From an uncultured Candidatus Saccharibacteria bacterium (lineage in GTDB: Bacteria; Patescibacteriota; Minisyncoccia; Phycocordibacterales; UBA9973): 64,000 nt of DNA. This document shows, in pieces, positions 4,129 through 40,900 of this stretch (position 1 is the first letter of the stretch; each line of letters begins with the position of its first letter). The notes beneath the pieces were generated by a model that saw only the letters and a list, made by a program, of their open reading frames with translations, was not told the DNA's origin and searched no databases. The position numbers were made by a program, and so were the translations under genes. The stretch is taken from contig CAZGNC010000001.1 of NCBI GenBank assembly GCA_964527235.1, positions 83,220 through 147,219 of the forward strand, in the 5' to 3' direction.

Positions 4129-4165
4129 AAATCCCCCGCTTTAGGCAGGGGATTCTCATTTTTTC
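4129..4165. terminator. Bidirectional intrinsic terminator shared by the DUF192 gene (+) and rnpB (-)
   Basis: Hairpin AATCCCC-cgctttaggca-GGGGATT flanked by T-runs on both strands. Confidence 0.6.
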
Positions 4166-4514
4166 ATGGGTATCTATAAGCCGAATTCTGTGTTTTAGCC
4201 GAAGCTAAAAGATAGTAATTTATCTAGGCCCACACTTGCGTGGGGGCTCAAGCGATTCTCTCCAACCAAGGTCGGAGCACGATCTTGCACAGGGGTAAGG
4301 GTTTAGCCGTTTCACTCCTAATGTTGCCATCAGGACTCACCCTTGGCTTGCGCTTTGGGTGTCCCTAGATTTTCACCTCGGGACGTCTCTGCTCGCACCT
4401 ATACATTGCTGTACACGGGGGTTACCCGCTACCTGTCTCTCCGACCAAGGTCGGAGCTGTGTTCGGACTTTCCTCTATAAAGACCGAAGTCTCTACAGTA
4501 ACTATCCAATACCC
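4166..4514 (-). ncRNA. rnpB: RNase P RNA, bacterial type A
   Basis: The reverse complement reads 5' GGGUAU...AGAGGAAAGUCCGAACACAGCUCC...GGUGAAAA...GCUUGAGCC...GGCCUAGAUAAAUUACUAUC...ACAGAAUUCGGCUUAUAGAUACCC 3'. This matches the P4 halves (GGAAAGUCCG / ACAGAA..CGGCUUAU), the CUUGAGCC...GGCCUAGAU block and P1 pairing (GGGUAU/AUACCC), with covariation CCGAA/UUCGG in P4. A near-identical 21-nt hairpin (GCUCCGACCUUGGUYGGAGAG) occurs twice inside the RNA. Confidence 0.9.
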
Positions 4515-4545
4515 ACGTCTGCATCCTAGCATATTTCCCCAAAAC

Positions 4546-4691: not shown

Positions 4692-6581
4692 ATGCATCCT
4701 GGATTAGTGTCTTGGAAAAACTTACTCGTTTATTCTTTTAACGCTTTTTCAACTCCGCTTCTTTTGAAGACCTTGTTTGATCCTTGGAAGAGGGATGATG
4801 ACGTGGGGAGGAACTCAACATTTCTAGAAAGATTCGTCTTCGCTATTATCTCTCGAGTTCTGGGATTTATTGCTAGACTTTTCTTGATTCTTGTTGGACT
4901 TATTTTTTATTTATTGACAGTCTGCACTTTCCCTATTTTCTTTTTTGTACCTTTTAAAATCTCTACTGAGTATTTACAGAGTCTTGGGAGCGTCGGCGCA
5001 TCTCTATCTTATGGTGATACATATACACTAAATGCGCACAGTCGTGACGTGCTCTCACCGATAGCATTGAAACTTTTCGGTAAGGAGAAAACCTTTCGAA
5101 TGATCGAACGTGGGCTCGATAAAGACACCAACCACAATGTTTTGCTTGTGGGCGAGACGGGCTCTGGTAAGACTACAGTAGTGGACTATCTCGGTCGCCT
5201 AGGTCGCTCGGGGCTTTCTTTCCCAGGTATTCGTAACCATCGCGTGGTGGAGCTTTTCATGGAGGGTATAAGTATTGAGGATTTCGATCAAGCTCTTCGT
5301 GAAGCCAACTCTGCGGGCAATGTCGTTCTTGTGATTGAGAACATTCATAGTTATGAAAATATTTTCGATAGGATTATGCCGTACCTGGTGACTTCGAGTT
5401 TGGGAGTTGTGGTGACCACAGATTTTGCTAATTACGACAGAGTGCTTAAAAATTATCCAGAATTTCTTTCTAAGTTTGAGAAGGTTGATGTTCTACCTTC
5501 TAACTTCGAAGACACAGTAAATATAATTAAGAACCATGTTCGTATTTCTGGCACTAGGATCAAAGACGATGCAGTTTTAGAAATAGTCCGACTCTCTGAT
5601 AGATATATCGGCAACCAACCGCAACCACTTAAGTCACTATTGATTCTAGAAGAGCTTCGCTCGCTCAGAAAGACTATCACTATCGAAGACGTCGAGCAGG
5701 TGATTTCAGACAAAACCAACATGCCGATAGGGGCACTAAGTCGCGACGAGCGCTCTGTGTTGGTGGGCCTAGAGGACGCTATGAAGCGCAAGATCATCGG
5801 CCAGGAAGAAGCAGTTAAAGACGTGTGTAACGCCCTACAGCGCCTCCGCACGGGTATATCTGACCCTAGTAAGCCTGCAGGAAGCTTCTTGTTCTTGGGG
5901 CCTACTGGTGTGGGTAAGACCTATACAGCCAAGATCTTAGCTGAGAGTTATTTCGGTAGAAAGAATGCGATGATACGTTTCGATATGACTGAATTTTCTC
6001 TACCTGAGTCAGTGCCTACTTTCGTAGATAGACTGGCGTCAGTTATTGAAGAAGCGCCACTTTCGCTAGTATTTCTAGACGAGCTTGAGAAGTCGAACAG
6101 AATGATTCAGAATTTATTTTTGCAAATTCTAGACGAGGGGGGGCTGACTCGCGGTACAGGTAGAGAAGTGTCTTTCAAAGATGCATTAATCATCGCTACG
6201 TCTAACGCTGGAAGCGCGACAATAATACAAAATCCAAATATTGATAAGAAGACTTTGGTAAGTGATTTAATTCGCAATAATATTTTTGCGCCAGAATTTT
6301 TAAACAGATTTAGTAGTGTGGTACTCTTTGGCCCGCTTAGCGCAGATGAGGTGAGGGAAGTCGCCAAGCTTCTGCTTAACGAACTAGCTCAGAGGTTGCT
6401 TGAAGATAAAAATATAAAATTAGAAATTACCGAAGCGCTTGTAGACAAGATAGCGTTAGCGGGATTTGATTTAGAATTCGGTGCACGACCTATCAAGCGC
6501 GCAATTGAAGATATTGTAGAAAATAAAGTAGCGGACTACATAATGGCAGGGAATACTGGCGGAACTTTAAAGATTTTATAA
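4692..6581 (+). CDS. Clp/Hsp100-family double AAA+ ATPase (ClpC/ClpB-like) with an N-terminal transmembrane anchor in place of the Clp N-domain
   Basis: Two TM helices (aa ~50-95); D1 Walker A LLVGETGSGKTT; D2 Walker A FLFLGPTGVGKTYTAKILAE; LVFLDELEKS; C-terminal D2-small domain GARPIKRAIEDIV. Confidence 0.8.
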   Translation: MHPGLVSWKNLLVYSFNAFSTPLLLKTLFDPWKRDDDVGRNSTFLERFVFAIISRVLGFIARLFLILVGLIFYLLTVCTFPIFFFVPFKISTEYLQSLGSVGASLSYGDTYTLNAHSRDVLSPIALKLFGKEKTFRMIERGLDKDTNHNVLLVGETGSGKTTVVDYLGRLGRSGLSFPGIRNHRVVELFMEGISIEDFDQALREANSAGNVVLVIENIHSYENIFDRIMPYLVTSSLGVVVTTDFANYDRVLKNYPEFLSKFEKVDVLPSNFEDTVNIIKNHVRISGTRIKDDAVLEIVRLSDRYIGNQPQPLKSLLILEELRSLRKTITIEDVEQVISDKTNMPIGALSRDERSVLVGLEDAMKRKIIGQEEAVKDVCNALQRLRTGISDPSKPAGSFLFLGPTGVGKTYTAKILAESYFGRKNAMIRFDMTEFSLPESVPTFVDRLASVIEEAPLSLVFLDELEKSNRMIQNLFLQILDEGGLTRGTGREVSFKDALIIATSNAGSATIIQNPNIDKKTLVSDLIRNNIFAPEFLNRFSSVVLFGPLSADEVREVAKLLLNELAQRLLEDKNIKLEITEALVDKIALAGFDLEFGARPIKRAIEDIVENKVADYIMAGNTGGTLKIL

Positions 6582-6595
6582 AAAAGAAAACAAAG

Positions 6596-6622
6596 AGGCC
6601 CCGTGCTTGCGCGCGGGGCCAT
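6596..6622. terminator. GC hairpin GGCCCCGTGC-ttgc-GCGCGGGGCC at the left boundary of the GC-rich island
   Basis: Perfect stem with a T-rich tract on the minus-strand side (TCTTTGTTTTCTTTTTT), so it terminates the minus-strand lipoprotein gene. It may also act on the Clp-like gene. Confidence 0.55.
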
Positions 6623-6672
6623 GAATGTCTCTCTTTGATGTCAGCCGAGAGACGATTGGCTGTTTGCTTCAA

Positions 6673-8298
6673 CTACGAACTTCCTTCAACCCTTCGCATC
6701 TCTGCGAGAAGGGTAGCTTCACCTCCGGGCTCGAGCGTAGCACGAGCTTCGCCGATGAGGTCGTTAGACCCCGGCTTGACGCATCGCGAGGTGTACTCGC
6801 CGGGCAACATCCCGCGGAGAGTGGTGGGGGTGGTGAAGATTCCCACGATCCCTCCGTTTGTCCGAACTTCGCACTGCATCTCGGGCAGGTTTGCCCGGAT
6901 GTTCAGTGTGCCGCCCATGATGCAGATCAGCTTGGCTGTCTTGCCGGCTTCCACAACAGCGCGTCCTTCGCCGATGATCTGGCCACCAGAGCCAGGCTTC
7001 ACGCATTTCCCGATGTATTCACCGGGTTGTCTGTTTGTGAGCGTGGTGTCGGTCAGCCACGCTCCAATGATGGTTCCGCCGAACGACACCTTCATCTCGA
7101 CGGGACCGTCGATGTTGTCGGTCAACACCAAGGTTCCCGTGGTTGGTGCCGGCGGTGGCGGCGGAGGTGGCGGAGCCACTTCCTTTTCCACATCGCAGTT
7201 CGACACCGTGCGTTGGTCGACGTTCACCGCGACGGGTGGAACCAGTCGCGACACGTATCCAGCGGGAGCCGTGTACGTGACCGAATAGAATCCAGCCTCG
7301 ACATTGATGCTGTCGGGCAGGGCGGGGAAGGACTTCAGCACAGACGAACTTCCAAGCTTCCGCACTTCAGCTTTCACGCCTGCAACTGTGCAGGTAGCGA
7401 GCAGCTTGCCCATGATTCTGGGCGGCGGCGGTGGAGCCGGCGGTTCCGGCTTGAGCGGGTTGTCACACACCGCGTTTGCTGAACCTCCTGCTGGCACCAC
7501 AGCGTAGGCCGTATCGGCCATACGCTTTCCTTCGGGGTCTTCGCATACAACCACGTAGCCTCCCGCCTTGACCTTGAGGTCGAAGTCGGTCGTTTGTGTG
7601 GTCAAGAGAGACCCGTAGAGCGCCGTGTATACCTTCGCGCGCATCCCTCTGGGTGAGGAATACACGTTGAGCACTCCGCTGTCCGACGCTATGGTCGGGA
7701 GCGGAGTGAGGTCGACGAGGAGCGTCTTCGTCGTTCGCGGATCTGGTGTCCATTCGGCCAGCCTGCTAGCATAGCCAGCGCGGCTGAGCGCGAAGATGTA
7801 CGATGACCCGTTACCGACGACGCTCGCCGTGTGAGGCGTCGTCGCATTTGTGAGCTTGGTCCAAGTGGTCGCACCGTTTGTGCGAGCCTGAGCCATGCTG
7901 TCTACCTTGGCCGTCATGCCGTCCTGTGTGCGGACGATGATGGTGGCCATGCTGTCGAGCGGCATCGTGGTCGACGGTTTGACCGTGACGCTGTCGGAGG
8001 CCTGGGTGTTTCCACCAGGGCCAGATGCGAACGCCCGGTATCGTACCGAACGCGACGGGTAGTCCGTCAACGTGTCGCACTTGGCGACAGTGAACCCTCC
8101 GGGTGACACCTGGATGGTGTTGAACCCAGTACCGCAGACTTCAATCTGCACCGGTTGCCCGGTCGTGATCGAGTCCTGCTTGATGTTGATCGTGACCGTT
8201 GGCGCTTCAGGCGCCGACGGTGGGGCTGTGATCTCTTCTACCGGATTGTTACATCCGGCGAGGATGACGAGCCCTACGATTGCAGCGAATCTTTTCAT
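6673..8298 (-). CDS. Secreted lipoprotein with PEGA-like domains, poly-Pro linkers and two C-terminal repeated beta domains (high-GC island)
   Basis: Start is placed at MKRFAAIVGLVILAGC (lipobox LAGC) with RBS GAGGAA 5 nt upstream. The track ORF extends a further 44 codons to 8430. PEPPAPPPPP and PPPPPPPPAP linkers. PEGA-like GFYSVTYTAPAGYVS. Duplicated ~60-aa C-terminal unit (PGEYIGKCVKPGSGGQIIGEGRAV / PGEYTSRCVKPGSNDLIGEARATL). About 60% GC. Confidence 0.7.
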   Translation of the reverse strand: MKRFAAIVGLVILAGCNNPVEEITAPPSAPEAPTVTINIKQDSITTGQPVQIEVCGTGFNTIQVSPGGFTVAKCDTLTDYPSRSVRYRAFASGPGGNTQASDSVTVKPSTTMPLDSMATIIVRTQDGMTAKVDSMAQARTNGATTWTKLTNATTPHTASVVGNGSSYIFALSRAGYASRLAEWTPDPRTTKTLLVDLTPLPTIASDSGVLNVYSSPRGMRAKVYTALYGSLLTTQTTDFDLKVKAGGYVVVCEDPEGKRMADTAYAVVPAGGSANAVCDNPLKPEPPAPPPPPRIMGKLLATCTVAGVKAEVRKLGSSSVLKSFPALPDSINVEAGFYSVTYTAPAGYVSRLVPPVAVNVDQRTVSNCDVEKEVAPPPPPPPPAPTTGTLVLTDNIDGPVEMKVSFGGTIIGAWLTDTTLTNRQPGEYIGKCVKPGSGGQIIGEGRAVVEAGKTAKLICIMGGTLNIRANLPEMQCEVRTNGGIVGIFTTPTTLRGMLPGEYTSRCVKPGSNDLIGEARATLEPGGEATLLAEMRRVEGSS

Positions 8299-8329
8299 GT
8301 GTTCCTCATCGGGGGTTCTTGTGTGGGAG

Positions 8330-9391
8330 CTACTTGCGTTCGCTTGGTGTCCATCGGAGCATGGCCCCGAGTCTCCATCCGATTCCTTTTGTGGGGTTGT
8401 TGGGTGTCTTAGCAAGAGTGTTCTGGCCATAGGTAATGTCTAGGTTCCAGATCGCTCTCGTATCCTTGGCGATCTGTAGTCCTGCGTCCAGACCTAGGCG
8501 ACCATAGTTGTTCTGCTGAACCCAGTTTCCGTTTACTCCCTCCGTGCCGGAGGTGCATGTAATCTCATCATGTCCACCGCCGGCGGTCAAGCCGAATGGG
8601 CCAGAGATGTCTCTCCTGATTCCAAGGTCGAACGATTTGTTCGCTTGGCTGCAGGTTCGACTTTGTCCTCTGGGCGAGTATCCAACCCGCCCTGTGAGTT
8701 CGAACGGGACGACGCGGGCCTTAGCAAAGAATCCCACACCAAATGTGAATGTCGAAAGGCGTTTTCTGCCTCCCGAAATCCCGTATCCGGGGCCGACAGC
8801 GAGGTCGATCCAGGACTCGTTCTTCTTCGCCTCTTCCTTCTTACCGCTGTCGGCGTTCGAGTTGTCGATCATCTTCTGGACCACCCCGGCGATTTGCGCC
8901 GTGGTGTCCTTCAGCGCACTGATGTCCTTCTTGGCCGACTGCATGTCGGTATTGAGCGTGTCGACTGCCTTGGTGACAGTCGCCAACGAGTCGTTCGGCG
9001 GTGCCGAGGCGACTGGGCAATCGAGGGAGATCATCACACCACGGTACTGCGGACCGCGTTGTGGTACTGCAATTCCCTTGGCATGAATTCGTCCGAGTTC
9101 GATCTTCTCGATCTCGTTCAGGATTCTTGTTACGTTACCTGCGCGGCGATCCGCGAGGTCTTGGTTCTGCTCCTTGTTGTTGGTTTTGTAGGGGGTTCCG
9201 TCTGCGAACCCCGTGACGTTGATATGGCACGAAGTGCCCGCGGCAATCGCAATCTCTTTCAATGCCAGACGGGTCTCGTCCTTACCAAGTGTGTACCCCA
9301 TGAAGGGGTATACGGTCGCCTTCGTTTCCTGCGCCTTGAGGGCGAAGGGGAAGATGGCGACCATGAGGATGGTCAGAATGAAGCGAAACAC
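8330..9391 (-). CDS. OmpA-domain protein with inverted architecture: N-terminal OmpA-like peptidoglycan-binding domain, coiled coil, C-terminal beta-rich (barrel-like) domain (high-GC island)
   Basis: GTG start with RBS AGGAG-acaaa-GTG. The track ORF is longer, with an upstream ATG. Signal peptide FRFILTILMVAIFPFALKAQE. OmpA-like motif INVTGFADGTPYK...NQDLADRRAGNVTRILNE. Coiled coil, then alternating-hydrophobic segments ending ...GWRLGAMLRWTPSERK. Confidence 0.65.
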   Translation of the reverse strand: MFRFILTILMVAIFPFALKAQETKATVYPFMGYTLGKDETRLALKEIAIAAGTSCHINVTGFADGTPYKTNNKEQNQDLADRRAGNVTRILNEIEKIELGRIHAKGIAVPQRGPQYRGVMISLDCPVASAPPNDSLATVTKAVDTLNTDMQSAKKDISALKDTTAQIAGVVQKMIDNSNADSGKKEEAKKNESWIDLAVGPGYGISGGRKRLSTFTFGVGFFAKARVVPFELTGRVGYSPRGQSRTCSQANKSFDLGIRRDISGPFGLTAGGGHDEITCTSGTEGVNGNWVQQNNYGRLGLDAGLQIAKDTRAIWNLDITYGQNTLAKTPNNPTKGIGWRLGAMLRWTPSERK

Positions 9392-9691
9392 TTTGTCTCC
9401 TGCGTTGTTGGTTGTGTGACTATTCTTCGGCTTCCCGGTAAGCGTTTGTGTTATTCTATAGCTTTTTTCGTAGTTGAAGTTGTCAAGGTACTGTGATGCC
9501 GGGGGATCCGGCCCACAGAGATTGTTCTCATAAAGACGGATTCCGACTACTGACCTATTACTAGCATAAAAAGTGCATTTTGTCAATGCCTAGCTTGACG
9601 TTTTTGGATTTTATGAAAAAGACAAAGCCGGGTAGCGTGGTGTTCGCTATCCCGGCTCGGATGTCCTCGTTGATGTCCCCTGAGGAAGGGG

Positions 9692-10210
9692 TTACCGCCA
9701 GGTGCGAATCATCACACCTGTGTGCAGACCAAGTGCCTGCTCTCCGTGGTTATTTCTTGTCCAGGCGAGGCCTGGGGCAAGGATGATGCCGAGCTTCTTG
9801 ACGTGCAATGTGTATGCTGGGCCAAGAATCAGGCCCATCTCGCGTTCTCGCTCATCGCGACAATTGTTTGCCTCTATGAGGGCACCTGCTGTGGCGCCCC
9901 ATGGACCACGAATCTCACGATGAATTGAGGCGACCAGAGCGCTCGAGCGTTCAGTGCAGTGATCCCGGGCATTTGCCCAGAATCCTCCCTCTACTTCGAT
10001 GTCGGTCCGATGGTCGATTCGTACGATGCCGATGACGGTCGGTTTGGTGCTCGATCTGCCGTTTGAACGCAGGTCGGACACTCCCGCGCCGAAGTTCAGG
10101 CGCGGGGACGGATTGTGTACGGTCTGGTGCGAGCTGTCTGCGGGTGAGTGTTGCGCATGAGAATTAGTAGCCCATGCGAGAATCGCAAGAAAAGAAATAA
10201 TTATACGCAC
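9692..10210 (-). CDS. Small outer-membrane beta-barrel (OMP_b-brl/porin-family-like) protein with signal peptide (high-GC island)
   Basis: GTG start with RBS GGAG-aatctc-GTG. Signal peptide MRIIISFLAILAWATNSHAQ. The ~150-aa mature part has amphipathic beta-strand periodicity. Confidence 0.5.
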   Translation of the reverse strand: MRIIISFLAILAWATNSHAQHSPADSSHQTVHNPSPRLNFGAGVSDLRSNGRSSTKPTVIGIVRIDHRTDIEVEGGFWANARDHCTERSSALVASIHREIRGPWGATAGALIEANNCRDEREREMGLILGPAYTLHVKKLGIILAPGLAWTRNNHGEQALGLHTGVMIRTWR

Positions 10211-10329
10211 GAGATTCTCCGCCCGGACGGTAATGTAATGTACAAAAATCGTCGGGATTTCCGGCGATCAATATATTTTTATCACAAACTTGCGCACTTG
10301 TCGATTTTAAAAATTTCTAGTTTATGTAT

Positions 10330-10357
10330 TTGACTTTATTTTTATAAATGTTAGAGT
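10330..10357 (+). promoter_or_regulatory. Promoter TTGACT-16 nt-TAGAGT for the micro-gene
   Basis: TTGACT at 10330-10335 and TAGAGT at 10352-10357. The perfect SD AAGGAGGTGA at 10376-10385 follows. Confidence 0.45.
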
Positions 10358-10389
10358 TTTTATTCCTCTAGATATAAGGAGGTGATTGC

Positions 10390-10452
10390 ATGTTCAGTTT
10401 CGCCGATTTCGTGAACGCCGTCTTCGAAGGGTGGAAGCCGCTGAAGAAGTAG
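10390..10452 (+). CDS. 20-aa micro-protein MFSFADFVNAVFEGWKPLKK with a perfect Shine-Dalgarno site
   Basis: AAGGAGGTGA-ttgc-ATG. Followed by a perfect 13-bp inverted repeat (10466-10492) and an intrinsic terminator. Confidence 0.45.
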   Translation: MFSFADFVNAVFEGWKPLKK

Positions 10453-10530
10453 CGTCACCGTCGAGCCTCTCGGCACACAGTGTGCCGAGAGGCCAGCAAT
10501 CAAGAGCTTGTTAAGCTCTGCAGTATTTAA

Positions 10531-10570
10531 GGACCCTGCTCGCCACCGCGCGACAGGGTCCTGCTTTTTT
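10531..10570 (+). terminator. Intrinsic terminator GGACCCTG..CAGGGTCC followed by TTTTTTG
   Basis: 8-bp GC stem and a T6 run, after the micro-gene and its inverted repeat. Confidence 0.6.
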
Positions 10571-10797
10571 GTCTTAATGTGCAGGAATCTCAGTACAAAT
10601 TTTTTCTTATTTTTCTTCAGGACTCGGTCACGAGTTACTAAGTATTTTATTTCATTACATTTATAAAATACAAAGTACTCGCGACCCCGCCTCGACCACG
10701 ACCTTCGGTCGGCTTCGCGGTCTCCGGCTTTCTCGTCCTGTACAATCTCGCAAAATGTAAAACCCCATTGCTTTCGCAATAGGGCTATAACATTTTG

Positions 10798-10870
10798 TGG
10801 ACCGTACAGGACTCGAACCTGCCACCCCCTCATTGCAAATGAGGTGCTCTACCAGATGAGCTAACGGCCC
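10798..10870 (-). tRNA. tRNA-Ala (anticodon UGC)
   Basis: Reverse complement GGGCCGUUAGCUCAUCUGGUAGAGCACCUCAUUUGCAAUGAGGGGGUGGCAGGUUCGAGUCCUGUACGGUCCA. Cloverleaf with G3:U70 in the acceptor stem, the Ala identity element. Anticodon loop UUUGCAA. The 3' end faces the GC-rich island, and a terminator-like hairpin lies at 10763-10784. Confidence 0.9.
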
Positions 10871-10880
10871 AGTAAAAGGT

Positions 10881-10908
10881 ATTCTAAACCATTTTATTAA
10901 TAATGCAA
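10881..10908 (-). promoter_or_regulatory. Promoter for tRNA-Ala (TTGCAT-16 nt-TAGAAT, minus strand)
   Basis: Reverse complement TTGCATtattaataaaatggttTAGAAT, ending about 10 nt upstream of the tRNA 5' end. Confidence 0.5.
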
Positions 10909-10985
10909 ATCAATAGCCGGTCTTGTTGTTGTTTTTTCTCTGTTTTCTGTTAGTATAATAAAAGTTCTCTAGAGAATTATTGTAT

Positions 10986-11058
10986 TCCGGGGTAGCTCAG
11001 CGGTAGAGCGGTCGCCTGTTAAGCGATTGGTCGTAGGTTCGATCCCTACCCCCGGAGC
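10986..11058 (+). tRNA. tRNA-Asn (anticodon GUU)
   Basis: UCCGGGGUAGCUCAGCGGUAGAGCGGUCGCCUGUUAAGCGAUUGGUCGUAGGUUCGAUCCCUACCCCCGGAG. Anticodon loop CUGUUAA; acceptor, D, anticodon and T stems all pair. Confidence 0.85.
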
Positions 11059-11084
11059 TCGTTTTTTGGGATAATCTAAATTAT

Positions 11085-11519
11085 ATGAAGCCATGTGCGT
11101 ACTGTACTAAACCAGAAGCGAAGGAAAGAACTATTATAAAAAATGATTTAGCTTTTGCTTTTCCAACTTATATTCCGATAACTCCAGGGCATACTTTGAT
11201 TTGTCCTATTCGTTGTGTGGCAAAATTTAGCGAATTGTCCAAAGAAGAATTATCAGCAATCTTTGAGCTACAAAATAAACTTAATATCGCACTATCCAAA
11301 GCGTTCGGGGCAGAGGGTTTTAACTATGCTTGGAACGAAGGAGAAATAGGTGGTCAAGATGTGCCACATTTTCATTTACATATGGTGCCAAGAAAGTCAG
11401 GAGATGCTGGTATATATGGGTATGATCCTAGGAAATTTCTTTATCGACCTGGCTCTCGCGAGAAAACCCCTGAAGATGAATTAAAGCACGTTGTTTCTTT
11501 TATCCAGAGTTTTCTTTAA
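11085..11519 (+). CDS. HIT-family (histidine triad) hydrolase
   Basis: HIT motif DVPHFHLHMVPR. Confidence 0.85.
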   Translation: MKPCAYCTKPEAKERTIIKNDLAFAFPTYIPITPGHTLICPIRCVAKFSELSKEELSAIFELQNKLNIALSKAFGAEGFNYAWNEGEIGGQDVPHFHLHMVPRKSGDAGIYGYDPRKFLYRPGSREKTPEDELKHVVSFIQSFL

Positions 11520-11726
11520 TTCAGAAATTGCTAAGATAATTTTGCGAGTTGGTGCCCAGCCCGAGTTTTGCGACGGCAAAGTGAGAGGCGCGGGAGATAT
11601 CCCTACCCTTGATGCAGACTTGACGAAAATTTTTTAATGTGCAAAATAAAAATTGGTTATCACTCTATTTGCGTTGGTTTTTATACGCAGATAGGTTCCT
11701 TATAAAACAACGCAGACAACGCGGAG

Positions 11727-12152
11727 ATGGAACAAATGGACTCACTGCATCTGGCTGGGAACTTGGGTTGGCAAATACTTCTGGCGGTCATTACGCCGGT
11801 TGTGGTTTCTGTCTTCGTGATTGTGAAAGTATTTATGCCCAACGTGAACCGTGAGGAAGAGAGGGCTGTGTCAGTATCCCTGGCACAGCGCGTGGCGTCT
11901 TCTAGCCACGGCGTCAGGAAAGTCGAGCCCAACAAAGGTGCAACTCGTCTCCATTTGTTTCCTCGTGACGGAAAGATGGAGGATTGCGTCCTCTGGTTCT
12001 TCTCCGGTCACCCTGATTTCAAGGAGGTGTCTCGAATTCCTGAGGACATCATGTTCACAGTGGAATTTGTGTTCACCGAGGTCCCCGTCAAAGGGCAAGC
12101 TCAGGAAGCTACGGGGTATCTTCGGTTAAAGAAGATGCCTCTGGTGTTGTAG
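11727..12152 (+). CDS. Hypothetical membrane-anchored protein, GC-rich, SD-driven (foreign-looking)
   Basis: N-terminal TM segment GWQILLAVITPVVVSVFVIVKVF. GGAG upstream of ATG. About 52% GC against an AT-rich background. An intrinsic terminator follows at 12161-12203. Confidence 0.45.
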   Translation: MEQMDSLHLAGNLGWQILLAVITPVVVSVFVIVKVFMPNVNREEERAVSVSLAQRVASSSHGVRKVEPNKGATRLHLFPRDGKMEDCVLWFFSGHPDFKEVSRIPEDIMFTVEFVFTEVPVKGQAQEATGYLRLKKMPLVL

Positions 12153-12160
12153 TTTGGTAT

Positions 12161-12203
12161 TCGCCCGACAGGTCGCCCGACCTCTCGGGCGATTCTGTTT
12201 TTG
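12161..12203 (+). terminator. Intrinsic terminator TCGCCCGA-cctc-TCGGGCGA followed by TTCTGTTTTTG
   Basis: Perfect 8-bp stem plus a T-run. Confidence 0.6.
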
Positions 12204-12428
12204 TATACAATTTTATTTTAATATAGCCATTCGAACATCCTCCCAAGTTTGGAGCATGTGAAAATCTTAAATCCACGCAAGTGGGCTTTTGATTTTTTAG
12301 ACGAGGGGAGAAAGCCAACCATTTGGCTTTCTTGTAGGGATCGAGAAGTTCACTCATGTTTTTTTTCACAAGAAGTTAATTGAATAAAATTAACATTCCT
12401 CTAAAAATTGATAAAATAGGGCTATTGT

Positions 12429-13013
12429 ATGAATAACGATGATATAAAACTAGTTGCACTGGCTAAGGAAAACCCGAAGGAATATGAGAAACTATACACT
12501 AAATATTCTGATAAGGTTTTCAACTATTTCTGGTATCGCACTGGACATGACAAGATGCTATCAGAAGATCTTATGCAAGAAACATTTTTGCGAGGGTTTC
12601 AGTATTTAGGCCGATTTAATAATCGAGGATACTCATACCTGACATATTTGATAACCATTGCTCACAATGTACTAGTTGACCACTATCGCAAGCCACAATC
12701 AGTGCCTTTTGAAGCTATTGATGATATCCCATACGAGGTTACAGAAGATATTGAAAATAAATCAGATGCCGAAGCGCTTTGGCGAGCCATCCAAGATTTG
12801 CCATCCCCAAATAGGGACAAGCTCCTCATGTATTATCAGCAGGATATGTCAATTAAGGATATTGCCACTGCTACCAACACTACGGAAAATGCGGTAAAGC
12901 TTTCGCTTTCTCGAACCAGGAAGAAACTCAAAGATCATCCGTACATCAAGGATATTCGTGGATTTGCAGATAAGAAACGCGAGCAGACCCACGCACAGTT
13001 TTTGGATAAGTAG
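12429..13013 (+). CDS. RNA polymerase sigma factor, sigma-70/ECF-like family
   Basis: Region 2 LMQETFLRGFQYLGRFN...YLTYLITIAHNVLVDHYRK. Region 4 HTH DMSIKDIATATNTTENAVKLSLSRTRKKL. Confidence 0.8.
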   Translation: MNNDDIKLVALAKENPKEYEKLYTKYSDKVFNYFWYRTGHDKMLSEDLMQETFLRGFQYLGRFNNRGYSYLTYLITIAHNVLVDHYRKPQSVPFEAIDDIPYEVTEDIENKSDAEALWRAIQDLPSPNRDKLLMYYQQDMSIKDIATATNTTENAVKLSLSRTRKKLKDHPYIKDIRGFADKKREQTHAQFLDK

Positions 13014-13309
13014 ACACCTTTTTTGGTTAAATACGTTTAATATTTTGACAGTGAGGTGGTCACTCACTGTGGTATAGAAAAAATCAATGATACTTAAGTC
13101 AAATAATGTGAATTCAAAACAAAAAGTGGCTCAAGGGATTCATTCTTTAAATTTCTGATGCCACATACCTCCACACAACTAAATAGTGCCAGTATAAAAG
13201 ATTGCATAAGCAAGCAAGAGAAGGCATATAGCTTTCTGGTGTACCACCAATCCCCCTTGTGATAGATCGACGTCAAGGGCATTAATAGAATCTAATCTTC
13301 AACATACCT

Positions 13310-13807
13310 ATGAATACAGCAATTAAAAAAGTAGACAATAATTCTCTTCAAAGACGAGATGAGTTTTTGGGTCCGTTCTCTTTAGTTGATAGATTCTTTG
13401 ATGATGCGCTCGATTCGTTCTCTATGATGTCGCCAAACCTGTTCCGTCATAGGACGCTAGGTAACGTCAGCACGCTGTTCCCCAAGGTAGATGTTGAGGA
13501 AACAGAGAATGAGATAAAGGTGACAGCCAATATTCCAGGAATCGACGCGGAAAATATAAATGTCGAGGTTGGAGATGATTATCTGTCGCTTTCCGGAAAA
13601 ATTGAGAAAGAGGATAAGTCTAGAGACAGGCAAGGCAAAGTGTATCGCTATGAACGTGAGTTCGGTGAGTTCCGCAGAGAGTTTGCACTCCCTGCGAGAG
13701 TAGATAAGGATGGAATAATTGCCAGGTCTAAAAATGGTGTACTCTCCATCATATTGCCCAAGTCTGAAGAAGAGAAGAAGAAAAAGGTTAAGGTAGAAGT
13801 TGAGTAA
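13310..13807 (+). CDS. Hsp20/alpha-crystallin family small heat-shock protein
   Basis: ACD core VDVEETENEIKVTANIPGIDAENINVEV...LSLSGKIE...FGEFRREFALP...NGVLSIILPK. Terminator at 13826-13858. Confidence 0.9.
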   Translation: MNTAIKKVDNNSLQRRDEFLGPFSLVDRFFDDALDSFSMMSPNLFRHRTLGNVSTLFPKVDVEETENEIKVTANIPGIDAENINVEVGDDYLSLSGKIEKEDKSRDRQGKVYRYEREFGEFRREFALPARVDKDGIIARSKNGVLSIILPKSEEEKKKKVKVEVE

Positions 13808-13825
13808 GTGAAAGAAATATTAAAC

Positions 13826-13858
13826 AAAAACCCGCTTATGAGCGGGTTTTTGTTTTGG
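13826..13858 (+). terminator. Intrinsic terminator AAAAACCCGCT-tatg-AGCGGGTTTTTGTTTTGG
   Basis: Stem plus a long T-run after hsp20. Confidence 0.7.
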
Positions 13859-13928
13859 TTTTTACCGAAGTAAATTTACTATCTATGTTTAGCTCGAAAA
13901 TTTAGATAACTTCTGGTATTATTTACTT

Positions 13929-33118: not shown

Positions 33119-36100
33119 ATGAAAAAATTCATAATTGGCTTTTTATTTTTTGGAACTTTTTTATTGATTCCAAGTATTAGTCTTGCTCAGACTTCAGGAT
33201 TTGGTGGTTATGATCCTAATAAGCCTCCAGCAGGTTATGATGCTGATTGTTGGGCAACTAAATTTTCTAGCCAAGGCGTGGGAGTTGACCTAAGAACAGG
33301 AAAGAGTGTTGATTTCCATTGTCGTGCTTTGACTGATAATACTACTGCGAAGTTTCCCAATGATTGGTATCAATGGACTGCTCAGCAATGGCAAACCATG
33401 TTTGCGGATGTGAAAACCAATCCTTATATCAAAGGTACCGTCACCGCGACGACTTTTTCTTGGGCAGAACAAGCTTATAACCAGGCTGGCATAAAAGCTG
33501 CGGCTGATTTAATGGCGCATAACTTAACAGTATCTCAAGCTGTTTCGGGAAATTGGCCAGGAGGACCTAATTATAAACCAGTTACTACTTCTTCCAATTC
33601 CACCAGTTCAGCAACTGTTGATGTAAAAGCAGATGGTCAGGATGGAGGAGTGAGTGTTCCAGCTTTTTCTAATGTTTCTATCTCTTGGACTTCAAGCGGT
33701 ATGAATGTTTGTAATATTTCTGCTCCAGATGCAAGTTCTCGTGTTTCCAATAGCGGTTCTTTAACAATGACCGTCCCATCTAGAATTGGATACACAAATA
33801 ATTGGCCATATACGATTTATTGTCTGGATTCAGGTGGTCAGAGATTTTCAGATACAGTTACAGTGAGTGCTACTCCAGCGTCTTTCCCTGCGAAGCCTGC
33901 ACCAATACCATTCATTGCTACTATGGCTAGTGGTTCTGATTGCCAGGCTGTAAATATTTCTTGGGGTTCATATGATTTAAATACAGCTTCAAGTTTCAAT
34001 ATATATCGAGATAGTATTAAAGTTGGTAGTGTAAACGCTAATGTATATAACTATCAGGACACAGGTCTGGTTGTCGGTAAAACTTATAGATATACAGTAC
34101 GAGCTGTTGGTACAAATGGTGAGTCTTTAGATTCGAATGCATCCTCATCTATTCCTAGTGGTTCTTGCAGTTCGTCAAATCCTAATCCCTCAACTATCAC
34201 ATACCCAACTCCAACCCTACCCACAACCACGACAACTACCACCAAAACTACACCCAACGTATTACCAGTAGGTTGTTCTACTACCGCAGGGCTAAGTCCA
34301 ATAACAGGAATTGCTTGCTCGAGTAATGGTGCAACAACCTACTATACTTCTTCAACTCCTACAGTGAAGGCCTCAGGATCATTGCCAATAAATCTTATCG
34401 CTTCTCCGTCTTCGATTTCTGCTGGTCAGGCGTCTACAATTGCGTGGAGTTCTACGGGGTTCACATCTTGTTCTAGTATAGATTTTTATGTTCCAAGAGG
34501 GAATTCAACTGCGGGTTCTGCTGTGGTGTATCCATCTAGAACCACAACATTTTGGATTGAATGTACAAAATCTTCTGGTGTAGAACAAAAGTCAGTCACT
34601 ATAACTGTAGGTGGCACTGGTAGTTCGTCTTCTGGTGGTTATGTGCCTCCCACCACGACTCTACCTATTGGAACAACACCACCTACTGTTGGCACTCCAA
34701 CGGTTGTACCGTCTTCTTACTGTGTTGGTAATGTTTTACCTACCATTCCGACCCCACCAGGACCGGTACCAACAGGTTGGGATGGTGTGTACACACGCGC
34801 TATTGATTTGATGGCGACAATGCAAAACAACATGAGTACCAACTATGTACTCGCGGCTCAATATAATTTACTTTCTGCTATGTTGGGAGCTCAGGGTGGG
34901 CAAAATGATTACACTCCGCCAGCAAATATCGCACCATTTCATACCTGGGTTAATTTAGTTTACAGAGCAGGGAGTGCTTGGGTGGGTGAAAGGGCTGTTA
35001 CAGGTCCTAATGGGCAAGGAATTCTACAAACTACCACTACTGGATCGTCACTATCTCAGTTGTTAAATTCTTACGGTGTTAATTGGCTACCTACATGTCC
35101 AGGGTCTTCTGGAACTGGTTCAGGAAGTGCCGTAATAACTTCTTTTACTGCGTCTCCTGATTCAATTTCTTCTGGAAATTCTTCAACTCTTTCTTGGACT
35201 ACAAGAAATGCTTCTTCCTGTGAAATAATAGGATCAATTAATGAAACAGTTCCAGTAAATGGGAAAAAAGTTGTTAGCCCTTCGGAGACTTCGTATTATG
35301 TTTTGCAGTGCACGAGTGCCAATGGGGTTACTGGTGTCGGGAAATATGTAACTGTCGATGGTTTACCTTTTGTGCCGAAAAATCCTGTGATTTCTATAGA
35401 TGTGTCTCCAAATATTATTACAGTTCCTCCTCTGACTTCAAGGACAATTGATGCGACTGTTAGCTGGAGCACAACTAATGCCATAACATGTTCAGGTGAC
35501 TTTGATGTTAATAGTGGTTCTGTAAAAAAAGCTCTTTCTGGATCAGAAATTGTTAAGATTCAAGTACCACCTAGTGCCTCGGGTGATACAGAAAGACATG
35601 TATTTACTTTGACTTGTGGAGGGGTGGGCACTAATAACATTTCTAAGTACACTACTTTAGATGTTAAGATCAGCAATGCGTCTCAGTCAAATTCTACAAA
35701 ATTTAAGGTTGGAGATAGTGTGTCTACTACTTCAATGTTGAACGTTCGTAGTTCAGCATCGATCAATGGTCAGGTATTAGGTACTCAAGCCAGGGGCGCA
35801 GTAGGTAAAATTATTAGCGGTGGTAATTACATAGATGGATATTATTGGTGGCAGGTTGATTATGTGAATGGCGATGACGGATGGAGTGCAGAGAACTATT
35901 TAACCAAGAGCACAAGTTCTTCTAGTACATCTTCTGGTGTACCTGCGTCTGTGAATGTAACTGGAGTTAAAGATGGGGATACAGTTTCTGGCACCTTGCA
36001 ACTCGGATTTGATTTTACTGGTGATACTTGTACATCCACTGATGGTGTTACCAAAGCCCCTTGCTCCTTGAATTGGCATACAGTAATTCTTTTAAGGAAT

Positions 36101-36580
36101 GACTCCGTGACTCAGGATTTTCTAGGATACAGAAACAGTTCTGATCCTTTTATTACAACACTAGATACAAAAACTTTAGCCGATGGTTGGCATGTAATTA
36201 TGGTTAGACCACAAGTAAATGTTCCTGTTGGGTTTACTCTAGACATGACGAAAGCGATTTATTTTAAAGTTGATAACAACAAGGCCGCGAAAACAACTCT
36301 TATAACTTCTCCTTTGGGTGTATCAACGACTAATGGAGGCACAATACAAGTAGATGCTCAGACCTCAAATTCTGCTGCCAATGTTCAATTTTTTGTTGGC
36401 AACGGCATATATCAAACAGTTGCCCCAATAAATGGCAAAGCCAGCGTGAATGTGTCTTATTCACAATTCAAGAACAATACAGGTATTCCTTTGTGGCCTG
36501 TACAGATATGTGCTCAGGCTAATTTCTCAGCAACTGGAGGTTTCTCTACCAGCACACCTGATTGTGTGTTTGTTAAATAG
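33119..36580 (+). CDS. 1153-aa secreted multidomain surface protein (Ig/FN3-like repeats plus a bacterial SH3-like domain)
   Basis: Signal peptide. FN3-like ...GKTYRYTVRAVGTNGES. Thr/Pro linker TPTLPTTTTTTTKTTP. Repeated ~90-aa Ig-like units (SISSGNSSTLSWTTRNASSCEI / SISAGQASTIAWSSTGFTSCSS). SH3b-like KVGDSVSTTSMLNVRSSASINGQVLGTQARGAVGKI...WWQVDY. Confidence 0.6.
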   Translation: MKKFIIGFLFFGTFLLIPSISLAQTSGFGGYDPNKPPAGYDADCWATKFSSQGVGVDLRTGKSVDFHCRALTDNTTAKFPNDWYQWTAQQWQTMFADVKTNPYIKGTVTATTFSWAEQAYNQAGIKAAADLMAHNLTVSQAVSGNWPGGPNYKPVTTSSNSTSSATVDVKADGQDGGVSVPAFSNVSISWTSSGMNVCNISAPDASSRVSNSGSLTMTVPSRIGYTNNWPYTIYCLDSGGQRFSDTVTVSATPASFPAKPAPIPFIATMASGSDCQAVNISWGSYDLNTASSFNIYRDSIKVGSVNANVYNYQDTGLVVGKTYRYTVRAVGTNGESLDSNASSSIPSGSCSSSNPNPSTITYPTPTLPTTTTTTTKTTPNVLPVGCSTTAGLSPITGIACSSNGATTYYTSSTPTVKASGSLPINLIASPSSISAGQASTIAWSSTGFTSCSSIDFYVPRGNSTAGSAVVYPSRTTTFWIECTKSSGVEQKSVTITVGGTGSSSSGGYVPPTTTLPIGTTPPTVGTPTVVPSSYCVGNVLPTIPTPPGPVPTGWDGVYTRAIDLMATMQNNMSTNYVLAAQYNLLSAMLGAQGGQNDYTPPANIAPFHTWVNLVYRAGSAWVGERAVTGPNGQGILQTTTTGSSLSQLLNSYGVNWLPTCPGSSGTGSGSAVITSFTASPDSISSGNSSTLSWTTRNASSCEIIGSINETVPVNGKKVVSPSETSYYVLQCTSANGVTGVGKYVTVDGLPFVPKNPVISIDVSPNIITVPPLTSRTIDATVSWSTTNAITCSGDFDVNSGSVKKALSGSEIVKIQVPPSASGDTERHVFTLTCGGVGTNNISKYTTLDVKISNASQSNSTKFKVGDSVSTTSMLNVRSSASINGQVLGTQARGAVGKIISGGNYIDGYYWWQVDYVNGDDGWSAENYLTKSTSSSSTSSGVPASVNVTGVKDGDTVSGTLQLGFDFTGDTCTSTDGVTKAPCSLNWHTVILLRNDSVTQDFLGYRNSSDPFITTLDTKTLADGWHVIMVRPQVNVPVGFTLDMTKAIYFKVDNNKAAKTTLITSPLGVSTTNGGTIQVDAQTSNSAANVQFFVGNGIYQTVAPINGKASVNVSYSQFKNNTGIPLWPVQICAQANFSATGGFSTSTPDCVFVK

Positions 36581-37926: not shown

Positions 37927-40900
37927 ATGAAATTAAGTAACAAAAAATTGAGCGGGAAAAAGGGTCCTAGAATGCTTTTCGGCGTTCAGGTTTTTTTCAT
38001 AACTTTTGCTCTAATTTTAAATTTATTTTTCACAAGTTTTGCTAACGCTACTGCTGGCGTTCCTCTAGTCATAAATTTTCAAGGACGATTGATGGATAAT
38101 GCGGGTGATCTTTTGGGTGGACCTTCTGGAACAGACTATTGTTATAAATTTTCTATTTATGACGCTACCACTGGAGGATCTAAAATTTGGCCGACAGGTT
38201 CTCCTTCGACTATGACCATCGTAACTCGTGAAGGAGTCTTCGATGCAAGTATCGGAGATACTGGTGCTGGAGGCGATGCGTTGGATTTAGCTTTCACTGA
38301 CGACCAGGCATATGTAAATGTTGAAGTTGCAGCTAAGGTGGGTGGCTCATGTACTACAGGTGGTGATGAAGTTTTCGAAACTCTATCACCTCGTCCGAGA
38401 ATTGTTTCTTCGGCTTTCGCTATAAATTCTAAAACTGTTGGAGGATTCACTCCAGCGCAATCCGCAACCAACAACCAGATTCCAGTTCTAACTTCTGGTT
38501 CACTTATACTTAGTCACGCAACTACTGCTGGTATAACCTCGTCAGGCGCAAACCCTCTTGCAGTAGATGCCGGTGCTTCTGGGGTATTAAATATTAACGG
38601 AACTTCAACAGGAGACATTCTAATCGGTGGAGGTTCTGGTTCTACTGGTTGTACGATTACTAACTCCTCTGGAGCATTTGCTTGTTCTGCTGGTATCTCG
38701 GGTACTACTGGCACTTTCTCAGGAGCCATCGCTGCTAACGGAGGCATCACATTCGACGCATCTACCGACACCATCGGAGCATTCACTGCAGCAGGGACGA
38801 TCGACATGAATGCAAACATCATTACCAACATCGGTAATGCTGGCACAGACTTCACAGCAACAGGAGGCTTAACATTAGACGACATACTCACAGTTAATGA
38901 CGACCTTACTGTTGCACTTTCAGGAAATGAGAACGTAGAGATTACTGATGGAGCTACTCCAACAACAGACATATTAAGCATCATAGCTGATGGAGCTTCA
39001 ATCACTAATGATGCTAACGCTTTAGAAATTGACTTTACCACAGGTGACGGAGCTAACGTAACTCAATCAGGATTACAGATTGATCTAGCTTCTGGAGGTA
39101 CTGCTTCTGGAGATACCATCTACGGTATCCATTTAACCATGGATGCAGCCGATGCTTCAACCCAAGACGCAATTTTCGTAAATGGTAACTTCGATACTAT
39201 CCTCGGTGGTACGACTGCTGGCACTTCAATATTCGACTTCACCAACTTCGATGTTACTTCTGCGGGAGCTATTTCTGGACTTAGTTTAGATCTTACAAGT
39301 GCAACACAAGCGACGATTAACCTAACTGATAGTGGTGACACATCTGGTCTTGGTATTATTAACTTTAAAGGAGGAGCTACTACAAGATTTCAAATACTTG
39401 GTAGAAACGATGTAACTACCGGCAATACTTTAACTTTCACCGATGGAACCAATGAACTTGTAAGAATTACCGACAATGGTCGTGTGGGTATCGGATCAAC
39501 TGACCCTGAAGACCTCCTCGAAGTTCAAGGAGCCGAAGCCACAGATTCAGTGTTAGTACTTGATGCTGACGATGGTGATGATGCTGCTGACACATGGTTT
39601 GTAAAATCTGTTGCTACAAGTAACTCTCTTTCAATACTAAATGATGTCACAGAAAGATTCGCTTTAACTTCTGCAGGGAATCTTCAGTTTGATGGAACAC
39701 TTACCTCAGGCTCCGGCAACACCGTCCTCACTCTCTCTACCGGTATGATTGATGCAGATGCACTTACTCTAACAACAGCCGCAGACGGAGGTACAGGTAC
39801 TTCTTCAGGCTCAGGACTTATTGTAAGAAGTGATGGTATAGGATTACTACAAGGTTGTACTGATGGACAAGTGCTGGCATGGGTAGAGTCTACTGATACT
39901 TGGGATTGTGCGACAGCGAGTGGAGGAGTATCTGACGGAGACAAGGGAGATGTAACAGTTTCGGGTTCTGGGGCAACCTGGACTGTGGACTATACTTCTT
40001 CTGATGGAGTAGGTGGCACCTCAACATCTGGGGGGCTCGAACAAGGCACAGGAGGCATAGGATTATTACAGGGTTGTGCTGATAATGAAATTTTGAAATG
40101 GAATGATGGCACTTCTGTCTGGGCGTGTGCTACTGACGCTACATCTGCTGGTGCTGGAGTTTCTACAATTCAAGAAGGAGATAGCACCATAGAAGGTTCA
40201 GCTTCGACTATAGATTTCTTAGCTGCTGATTTTACAGTTACAAGTTCTCCAGCCGGTGAAGCGAACATAGTAATTGATTACACAAACTCAGGAATAACTC
40301 GAAACAGCCAGAACGAAGCAATAACTGGTGACTGGGGCTTTACTTTAGGAGCGGGAGAGGCTATAGATTTTGTTGCTGGGGCTGCGCCAACTGTAGACAT
40401 GGTAGAAATTGGAAATACTGGTCAAGGGACCACTACTACTGGCGTTGATGGATTAGAAATAAATTTCGTAACAGCAGCGGTGGCTGGTTCAGTAGAGAAC
40501 TCTGCTTTAGAGATTATCCTTGATCCTTCAGGAGCCACAGAAGCAGGAGATCAAGTTAATGCTGTTGACATAGCCAACATAACCAATCCAACAGGGCTAA
40601 CTACAGGAGTGAGAGTTGGTAGTGGGTACGATGTCGGTATCGCTTTCAGGGATTCTGCTGGAGATTATGTAGGATTTAAAGCTCCTGCAGATGTAACAAC
40701 AACTACGACTTGGACACTACCAGCTGCGGATGCTGCGGGATGTTTTAAATCTGATGGCTCTGGAAACATGTCTATAAGTTCTTGCGGTGATACTAAGGTT
40801 CAGGTCTATGATTCCAACACTACTTATACAGTTCCCGCTGATGCTCAGATGATAATAATTGAAGCTATCGGTGGAGGAGGATCTGGAGGTGGTGGTGCGC

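Follow-up and report, generated by a model that had tools for sequence, protein, structure and literature searches.

Why does a genome of the candidate phyla radiation (CPR) with a GC content of ~40% carry, at one place, a block of GC-rich genes for envelope proteins with outer-membrane-type folds, and where did this block come from? The window analysed here is the 64-kb stretch of contig CAZGNC010000001.1 (all coordinates are window positions), and the element in question is a GC-rich island of ~3.6 kb between a ClpB-like gene and a tRNA-Ala gene. An earlier note, made from the sequence of the window alone, had described this island as foreign DNA from a diderm donor and had listed a decayed integrative island and a chimera among the alternatives. 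Going beyond this note, we found that the island occurs throughout a clade, has mosaic alleles and has been exchanged laterally among divergent Nomurabacteria. Our verdict is that this CPR lineage carries a clade-restricted, compositionally foreign, position-conserved, mosaic and laterally exchanged cassette, which encodes orphan envelope proteins with folds of the outer-membrane type. The cassette genes and their neighbours are (SD, Shine-Dalgarno sequence; GC3, GC content at third codon positions):

4692..6581, plus strand: ClpB-like AAA+ ATPase, a host gene (Pfam AAA_2 and ClpB_D2-small; N-terminal membrane segment)
6673..8298, minus strand: lipoprotein gene (541 aa; GC3 0.71; SD GAGGAA at 8302-8307)
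8330..9391, minus strand: gene for an OmpA-like secreted protein (353 aa; GTG start; SD AGGAG at 9397-9401)
9692..10210, minus strand: gene for a small secreted protein (172 aa; GTG start; SD GGAG at 10217-10220)
10797..10870, minus strand: tRNA-Ala(UGC), the conserved right anchor, with the island on its 3' side
10986..11058, plus strand: tRNA-Asn(GUU)

A GC-rich island between conserved anchors

The GC content is 0.55-0.63 in all 200-nt windows from ~6600 to ~10200 and ~0.33-0.46 elsewhere. The three island genes have a GC3 of 0.71, 0.68 and 0.58 (0.69 for the extended form of the lipoprotein open reading frame, ORF), compared to 0.23-0.44 for ~50 host ORFs. Host surface proteins with an equally high GC content at second codon positions (0.54) have a GC3 of merely 0.26-0.31, thus the GC shift is not an amino-acid effect. 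The tetranucleotide L1 distance between the island and the rest of the window is 0.61, whereas other 3.6-kb windows have a distance of 0.196 +/- 0.047 with a maximum of 0.33, which places the island ~9 standard deviations out and sets it apart from the whole rest of the window in tetranucleotide usage. The TETRA z-score correlation is likewise low (0.28 versus 0.54 +/- 0.10). These measures confirm that the island DNA is compositionally foreign, as the earlier note had proposed, at synonymous sites as well as in its oligonucleotide signature. No paralogues of the island proteins were found elsewhere in the window.

The ClpB-like gene is the conserved left anchor and lies outside the island, the left boundary of which is a GC-rich hairpin (6598..6620) at the GC step. 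On the right side, the GC-rich block stops at ~10210 and a mixed spacer of ~590 nt (10211-10796) separates it from tRNA-Ala. The location given before therefore holds as far as the 3' side of tRNA-Ala is concerned, but island and tRNA gene do not adjoin each other directly.

Judged by the ClpB-like flank, the host is a CPR bacterium of the Candidatus Nomurabacteria/Paceibacterota, in agreement with the CPR-like host of the earlier note: the ClpB-like gene is 94-95% identical in L001 and L008 (the latter a contig of a metagenome-assembled genome (MAG), 95%) and 61-69% identical in ~40 Nomurabacteria/Paceibacterota MAGs. The search of other assemblies suggested before revealed the tRNA-Ala-linked cassette in relatives: the junction between tRNA-Ala and the cassette recurs in L001, L005, L007 and L088, and the junction between the ClpB-like and the lipoprotein gene in L001, L006, L008 and L089. 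L001 has the order DUF1428, tRNA-Asn, tRNA-Ala, small barrel, OmpA-like protein, lipoprotein and ClpB-like gene; L007 contains the whole cassette, L005 and L088 the tRNA side and L006, L008 and L089 the ClpB side. In each relative the cassette has a GC content of 57-63% and the flanks of ~36-45%. Three Logan contigs identical to the window (L002-L004) contain the GC-rich part only and span no junction.

Homologues of the island proteins are extremely rare, and every one found sits in this same context. An exhaustive HMMER search with the profile of the small protein against 1.84 billion representatives of ~15 billion proteins returned only its own family and one outside match, P0011, a eukaryote-type zinc-knuckle protein that we rejected as spurious. 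Word-indexed searches with the OmpA-like protein and the lipoprotein yielded clade members only, and the lipoprotein has only four homologues in a database of 5.8 billion clusters. In JGI metagenome contigs, the OmpA-like profile found no match and the lipoprotein profile only L089, and searches of viral contigs, phage records and plasmid records (the last by tblastn) gave no cassette homologues. A donor, or a phylogeny nested in another lineage, was not found in these searches; the GTDB genome scan covered the ClpB flank and not the island proteins. The earlier note had stated that best matches within the same CPR lineage would speak against a foreign island. Taken literally this is what we see, but these matches are orthologous copies of the same GC-rich island and give no proof of a native origin.

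More distant Nomurabacteria lack the cassette. L009 shows the empty-site arrangement: the ClpB gene is followed, after a gap of 836 nt that contains only a YceG/MltG gene and no island, by tRNA-Ala (complementary strand) and tRNA-Asn (plus strand). In a neighbour-joining tree of ClpB, L089 is the sister of the window clade, followed by the empty-site L009 and L022. In other Nomurabacteria (L039, 11992-14334; L042, 5251-8568), the region from the ClpB-like gene to tRNA-Ala is occupied by different secreted proteins and lipoproteins of native GC content, some of which are coiled-coil or beta-rich. We considered these neighbours as low-GC homologues of the cassette and rejected them (hhalign probability <1%). 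Since unrelated secreted proteins occupy the same interval, it seems to serve as a variable locus for envelope proteins throughout the group.

Several observations concern the surroundings of the island. Between tRNA-Asn and DUF1428 (11085-13927) the window contains a HIT gene, the GC-rich orf141, an ECF-type sigma factor gene and an Hsp20-like gene, none of which is present in L001 (7095-7317), thus both sides of the tRNA pair are variable. The second small GC-rich gene beyond the tRNAs, orf141 (11727-12152, plus strand; 141 aa, GC3 0.61), encodes one transmembrane segment and has no Pfam match; its upstream region, ACAACGCAGAC..., resembles that of the OmpA-like gene, ACAACGCAGGAGAC. The bacterial class A RNase P RNA is located just upstream of the ClpB-like gene (4161-4517, minus strand). 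In L008, the alignment of the RNase P RNA segment (1337-1649) is reversed relative to its flanks, which suggests a local inversion or rearrangement. A GC peak at 41.1-41.8 kb was rejected as a second island since it stems from low-complexity, Gly-rich sequence in a surface protein of 1937 aa, whose GC3 is 0.28; this secreted protein (37927-43740, plus strand) has a long Gly-rich core with a local GC content of 0.59-0.62, and its 1153-aa neighbour (33119-36580) resembles it in composition. Two plus-strand ORFs within the island (285 aa and 308 aa) and a minus-strand ORF of 157 aa at 10360-10833 were taken as by-products of the high GC content and not as genes.

Envelope proteins and expression signals of the cassette

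The earlier note had read the three minus-strand genes as encoding a lipobox lipoprotein, a protein with OmpA-like, helical and barrel-like parts and a small outer-membrane-type barrel, and this reading stands. The OmpA-like protein consists of a signal peptide (...FPFALKAQ), an OmpA-like domain (residues ~40-125), a helix (~133-182), which is a putative coiled coil, and a beta-rich C-terminus. The OmpA-like domain contains the peptidoglycan-binding motif GFADGT...NQDLADRRAGNV, in which the pattern D / N-x2-L-x3-R-A-x2-V is kept. Pfam OmpA (PF00691) scores 25.3 bits (E 2e-5) with a curated cut-off of 27.2, and three of the four orthologues match. In a PDB search with the orthologue profile, 23 of the 24 matches at E<=1 were OmpA, YiaD, RmpM, OprF, YfiB and MotB (best E 0.003), and these matches span the N-x2-L-x3-R-A motif. 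The AlphaFold2 model is poor overall, with a predicted local distance difference test score (pLDDT) of 41, and reaches 55-77 at residues ~40-125. This part shows the beta-alpha-beta-alpha-beta-beta fold of OmpA-like domains, and Foldseek matched it to 3td5, 5u1h, OprF-C, MotB, Pal and TagL (E 7e-5 to 1e-2; TM-score up to 0.69, target). The structural matches also include MotS of the monoderm Bacillus subtilis, so that an OmpA-like domain alone is no proof of a diderm. With this match, and with all detectable homologues located in the same CPR clade, the diderm donor proposed before stays an unproven reading of the folds.

The small protein is modelled as a signal helix followed by eight long antiparallel strands in up-and-down order (pLDDT 63) and is thus predicted to be an 8-stranded antiparallel outer-membrane-type beta-barrel. 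No known outer-membrane barrel family was identified: Pfam searches with three orthologues gave no family at E<=5, apart from an irrelevant match to GH5_C (0.028). The C-terminus, ...GVMIRTWR, has its aromatic residue at the penultimate and not at the terminal position. An hhalign comparison (probability 92%, E 6.4e-7) with the beta-rich C-terminus of the OmpA-like protein indicates that the two are paralogous. The small gene is absent from L005. In the NCBI record it seems to be unannotated, and the exact product is recorded only from Logan assemblies.

The true start of the lipoprotein is MKRFAAIVGLVILAGC, and the listed ORF up to 8430 is an upstream extension. Its signal peptide ends in the lipobox LAGC with Cys16, which conforms to the pattern [LVI][ASTVI][GAS]C, and cleavage in the window copy, read by eye from the sequence, would fall between MKRFAAIVGLVILAG and C; LAGC is also present in L001 and L005, and L007 has LTAC. 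The lipobox is followed by a Cys-containing N-terminal domain and at least four PEGA/transthyretin-like beta-sandwich modules, which are separated by poly-Pro linkers (PPPPP). The assignment of PEGA domains made in the earlier note is weak for the window copy: Pfam PEGA (PF08308) matches one of the four orthologues (2.4e-8) but not the window copy, and the precomputed matches are flagged as faint. Two orthologues match SdrD_B (4.7e-5) and CarboxypepD_reg (5.7e-5); the window copy matches neither, and its sole Pfam match is a proline-rich artefact.

The architecture of the OmpA-like protein is reminiscent of the OmpM/SlpA tethers of diderm Terrabacteria, in which OmpM combines an SLH domain with an outer-membrane barrel (10.1101/2021.05.31.446380). 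Both have an N-terminal wall-binding domain and a C-terminal barrel or barrel-like domain, here with a predicted long helix in between. However, Pfam found no SLH domain in our protein and matched only the OmpA-like domain, which takes the place of SLH, thus the stalk protein is not a member of the OmpM/SlpA family. In addition, its barrel is small, with ~8 strands by paralogy, and no porin, and the organism is regarded as having no outer membrane. The likeness seen is one of domain order. With OmpA and OprF, in which an N-terminal barrel of eight strands precedes a C-terminal OmpA-like domain, the cassette shares both domain types at the fold level and the motif D...N..L...RA..V, but in the stalk protein the domain order is inverted, a helix of ~50 residues is inserted and the Pfam score is below the cut-off, and the cassette proteins match no barrel family by sequence. 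The small protein differs from NspA, OmpX/Ail and OmpW, to which it is 6-12% identical, in its lack of a Pfam match, in its end ...RTWR without a terminal aromatic residue and in its host, for which no BAM machinery or outer membrane is known.

The non-coding features of the locus are:

6598..6620, no strand given: GC-rich hairpin (GGCCCCG...CGGGGCC) where the ClpB-like and lipoprotein genes converge, followed on the minus strand by a T-run
9557..9657, minus strand: intergenic control region, read from the sequence, of putative function
10242..10268, minus strand: hairpin and T-run just upstream of the small-barrel gene
10330..10575, plus strand: accessory micro-gene or small-RNA unit
10576..10796, minus strand: spacer from tRNA-Ala to the cassette, with a GC-rich hairpin block (10679-10745) and the motif CAGGACGAGAAA (10729-10740)

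The expression signals of the cassette differ from those of the host genes, as had been noticed before. The three island genes and the micro-gene have SD sequences (GAGGAA, AGGAG, GGAG and AAGGAGGTGA), which are located 6-8 nt upstream of the three main genes. Only one of ~52 host ORFs has an upstream AGGAG, ~20 nt from its start, whereas ~19 of the ~52 have a TAnnnT -10 hexamer beginning 12-14 nt before the ATG, often preceded by TG (TGnTAtAAT), for instance upstream of 17036, 21015, 24081, 28566, 30026, 33119, 51997 and 52434. This is the layout expected for leaderless mRNAs, which implies that such mRNAs are widespread in this Nomurabacteria genome. The control region between the small gene and the OmpA-like gene contains a terminator-like hairpin with a T-run 3' of the small gene (9615-9657) and a sigma-70-type promoter (TTGACA at 9581-9586, a 17-nt spacer and TGcTAGTAAT at 9557-9563). 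With this promoter of its own, the OmpA-like gene would have a 5' untranslated region of ~165 nt. Blastn blocks show that this region has been conserved in the relatives L001, L005 and L007; a 78% "protein" match across it is spurious. The stem of the hairpin at 10242..10268 varies among the lineages yet remains paired, L007 having a perfect 8-bp stem (ATCATCGG/CCGATGAT) and the window and L001 having variants with one mismatch or a G-T pair.

The micro-gene unit contains a promoter-like site, TTGACT-16-TGtTAGAGT (10330-10357), the SD sequence (10378-10387), a micro-ORF of 20 codons (MFSFADFVNAVFEGWKPLKK, 10390-10452, plus strand) and three hairpins, among them a perfect stem of 14 bp (10465-10493) and a terminator (10532-10570); with a z value of -5.0 for its fold, the RNA is strongly structured. 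L007 has the same unit: when the two are aligned, promoter and 3' hairpins hardly differ, and compensatory changes are seen in hairpin 1. The micro-ORF is poorly conserved but open in L007, where it encodes a 24-aa hydrophobic peptide with a KK tail (MIELFLLVFGGLDLFEGIKGRTKK). The unit resembles a small-RNA or type-I-toxin-like accessory. L001, L005 and L088 lack it, and it does not belong to the core of the cassette.

We compared the spacer between tRNA-Ala and the cassette in the window (10576-10796), L001 (7620-8010) and L007 (38-706). The motif (GACCGAGATTCCTGTACGGT)CAGGACGAGAAA has one copy in the window and three in L001, and part of it is identical to the tRNA-Ala 3' end (TCCTGTACGGTC; exact over 12 nt in L001). 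A further motif, GAGGC(G/A)GGGTCG(C/T)GA, is shared with L005 and L088. An Rfam search of the spacer and leaders of the window and L001 gave only chance-level matches, even at relaxed E-values. The lack of an integrase and of an att repeat, reported in the earlier note, was borne out by scans of ORFs, repeats and tRNA ends: no ORF from 4692 to 11100 or in the L001 flanks encodes a tyrosine or serine integrase, neither repeat finding nor mismatch scans located a direct copy of the tRNA 3' end at the distal boundary, and the 15- and 20-nt tRNA-end patterns match only tRNA-Ala itself in the window. None of the eight loci examined has this cassette next to an integrase and with att repeats that are intact. 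An interpretation of the spacer repeats as att scars was not established, the motif and the tRNA-end look-alikes do not bracket the cassette.

Divergence and exchange of cassette alleles

The ratio of nonsynonymous to synonymous substitutions (dN/dS) is 0.13-0.31 for the island genes (0.13-0.19 for the lipoprotein) and ~0.03 for ClpB; by this measure the island genes are functional and under purifying selection. Across genomes with flanks that are 83-87% identical at the DNA level, the proteins are very divergent: the lipoproteins are 42-57% identical, the OmpA-like proteins 36-41% and the barrels 55-60%. The cassette alleles are mosaics. In columns 1-120 of the lipoprotein, L005 clusters with L001 and the window copy (61-90%) while L007 stands far apart (14-34%), whereas in columns 121-360 L005 groups with L007 (77-92%). 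Similarly, the C-terminal half of the OmpA-like protein groups L001 with L005 (68-85%) and the OmpA-like domain groups L005 with L007 (69-82%).

The comparison of L089 with L008 is the clearest case of exchange. In the last ~790 nt of the lipoprotein gene, the two are 75-98% identical at the DNA level (mean 85%) and 90% at the protein level, with a synonymous divergence (dS) of 0.51. The adjoining intergenic region and the ClpB-like gene are only 50-70% identical, with 66% identity of the ClpB protein and 37% at third positions, which are saturated. This identity step coincides with the GC step and falls at the place equivalent to the hairpin at 6598..6620. Cassette segments have thus passed from one divergent Nomurabacteria lineage to another, or have reached both from a common pool, well after these lineages had separated. 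For the small gene, dS between L001 and L007 is 0.89, compared to 0.76 for ClpB, which matches the expectation for vertical descent within the close clade.

Parsimony-polarised singletons at third positions comprise 161 GC-to-AT and 89 AT-to-GC changes in the island, in contrast to 110:129 in the ClpB flank (chi-square p = 6.5e-5). The net GC-to-AT flux indicates that the island is out of compositional equilibrium and drifting toward the composition of the host, as foreign DNA should.

Origin and possible role of the cassette

We consider it somewhat better than an even chance (probability roughly 0.55) that the island is an old foreign three-gene cell-envelope cassette that has been retained as a fast-diversifying envelope or host-contact module. 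The cassette would have entered the interval between the ClpB-like gene and tRNA-Ala from a GC-rich source in the ancestor of one Nomurabacteria subclade, in a single old acquisition. It has no mobility genes of its own. It would persist because its genes are functional, and it may have diversified in two ways, by fast protein evolution and by the replacement of modules through recombination between lineages. Transcription would start from its own AT-rich promoters, with 5' leaders and SD sites, in a host with seemingly leaderless genes. The lipoprotein would be anchored in the cytoplasmic membrane, with its beta-sandwich modules projecting on rigid poly-Pro spacers, and the OmpA-like protein might grip the peptidoglycan and hold a small beta-barrel at the tip of a helical stalk, with the third protein being a free copy of this stalk barrel. 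Together, the three proteins might form a surface or host-contact module under diversifying pressure.

The O-antigen and capsule loci of Enterobacteria and Streptococcus pneumoniae are hypervariable surface loci of atypical GC content that lie between conserved flanks and are exchanged by recombination. The cassette resembles them in its fixed position between anchors, in its atypical composition, in its divergent mosaic alleles and in the age of its alleles, which is unrelated to the divergence of the host genomes. Unlike these loci, it carries three structural envelope proteins and no enzymes for polysaccharide synthesis, its GC content is above that of the host, its hosts are CPR bacteria and no outside gene pool has been identified.

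Several points weigh against an old foreign cassette. Since no donor lineage was found, a foreign origin has only the composition and the AT-ward flux to speak for it. The ratio of GC-to-AT over AT-to-GC changes is 1.8 and thus below the ~4 calculated for pure decay under the mutation pressure of the host, and parsimony polarisation is biased toward common-to-rare changes. GC3 is still ~0.7 where the synonymous sites of ClpB are saturated, so that the persistence of a high GC3 needs either a recent spread between lineages, seen for some segments only, or a force that maintains GC or slows its decay. The ClpB tree is a single-gene neighbour-joining tree without support values, and the treatment of L088 and L089 as one genome is an assumption. 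In addition, the Pfam score of the OmpA-like domain is under the curated cut-off, and CPR cells have been described as monoderm (PMC8871954), which leaves no obvious membrane for a barrel.

Native CPR genes with a locally raised GC content, due to GC-biased gene conversion in a recombination hotspot or to selection on transcripts and without an outside donor, are an unlikely explanation, even though all homologues belong to the same CPR clade, the locus clearly recombines, GC3 is uniformly ~0.7 across the lineages and other Nomurabacteria hold unrelated secreted proteins and lipoproteins of native GC content in the same interval. The latter are not detectably homologous to the cassette, its SD-led translation and long leaders are unlike the gene organisation of the host, and the net flux runs from GC to AT, which is neither equilibrium nor gain. 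To our knowledge, the shift in GC3 from ~0.35 to ~0.7 is far beyond the effects of gene conversion in bacteria.

It is also rather doubtful that the cassette was taken up recently and directly from the present GC-rich diderm host of the symbiont, for instance by competence and perhaps repeatedly and independently in each lineage. Folds of the outer-membrane barrel, OmpA-like and lipoprotein type, the high GC content in every lineage and segments that are much younger than the host genomes would agree with such an uptake. However, a recent donor should have left homologues among the ~15 billion public proteins and none was found, the cassette is always present at the same locus with the same gene order, and the divergence of the small gene is close to that of ClpB, as under vertical descent.

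A more specific and quite improbable proposal for the function is that these monoderm, host-dependent CPR cells make genuine membrane barrels, for which they have no outer membrane of their own and which insert into that of a bacterial host, the cassette being a host-attachment device with alleles that are traded as the lineages track different hosts. One barrel would then be tethered to the peptidoglycan via the helical stalk and the OmpA-like domain, and the poly-Pro/PEGA lipoprotein would act as a spacer or adhesin. A second version of this proposal is that the clade has an outer-membrane-like layer.

The chance is small that the cassette is the remnant of an integrase-driven element or prophage targeting the 3' end of tRNA-Ala. 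Like tRNA-linked genomic islands, it is of foreign composition, lies near a tRNA gene, on its 3' side, and has an empty site in a relative; repeated spacer motifs partly resemble the tRNA-Ala 3' end, and the micro-gene is present or absent depending on the lineage. Unlike such islands, it is fixed across the clade rather than strain-specific, has neither integrase nor att repeats and is separated from the tRNA gene by the spacer. No phage or plasmid gene was found in or near the island either, viral contigs, phage and plasmid records gave no matches, the far boundary has no tRNA-end repeat and all look-alike repeats lie between the tRNA gene and the cassette. The classic integrative island among the earlier alternatives is thus not supported. 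The remaining one, a chimera of a GC-rich diderm fragment and a CPR contig arising in assembly or binning, for which the sharp GC step at both ends and the three identical contigs without a junction could be cited, is effectively refuted, since the relatives with junctions have diverged sequences and come from different samples and assemblers, and divergent copies of both junctions cannot all be one artefact.

We therefore return to an old foreign cassette, retained for its function in the cell envelope, as the most probable reading. CPR bacteria are very small, have not been cultivated and for the most part live on other cells, by means of attachment that are largely unknown, and an outer membrane is considered to be absent from them. 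Outer-membrane-type barrels together with a peptidoglycan anchor thus provide a concrete candidate for the interface between CPR cells and other cells. Foreign genes that keep their own SD sites and leaders inside an otherwise leaderless-looking genome are a clean natural case, and the persistence of a high GC content in a low-GC genome bears on the rate at which acquired DNA drifts toward the composition of its host.

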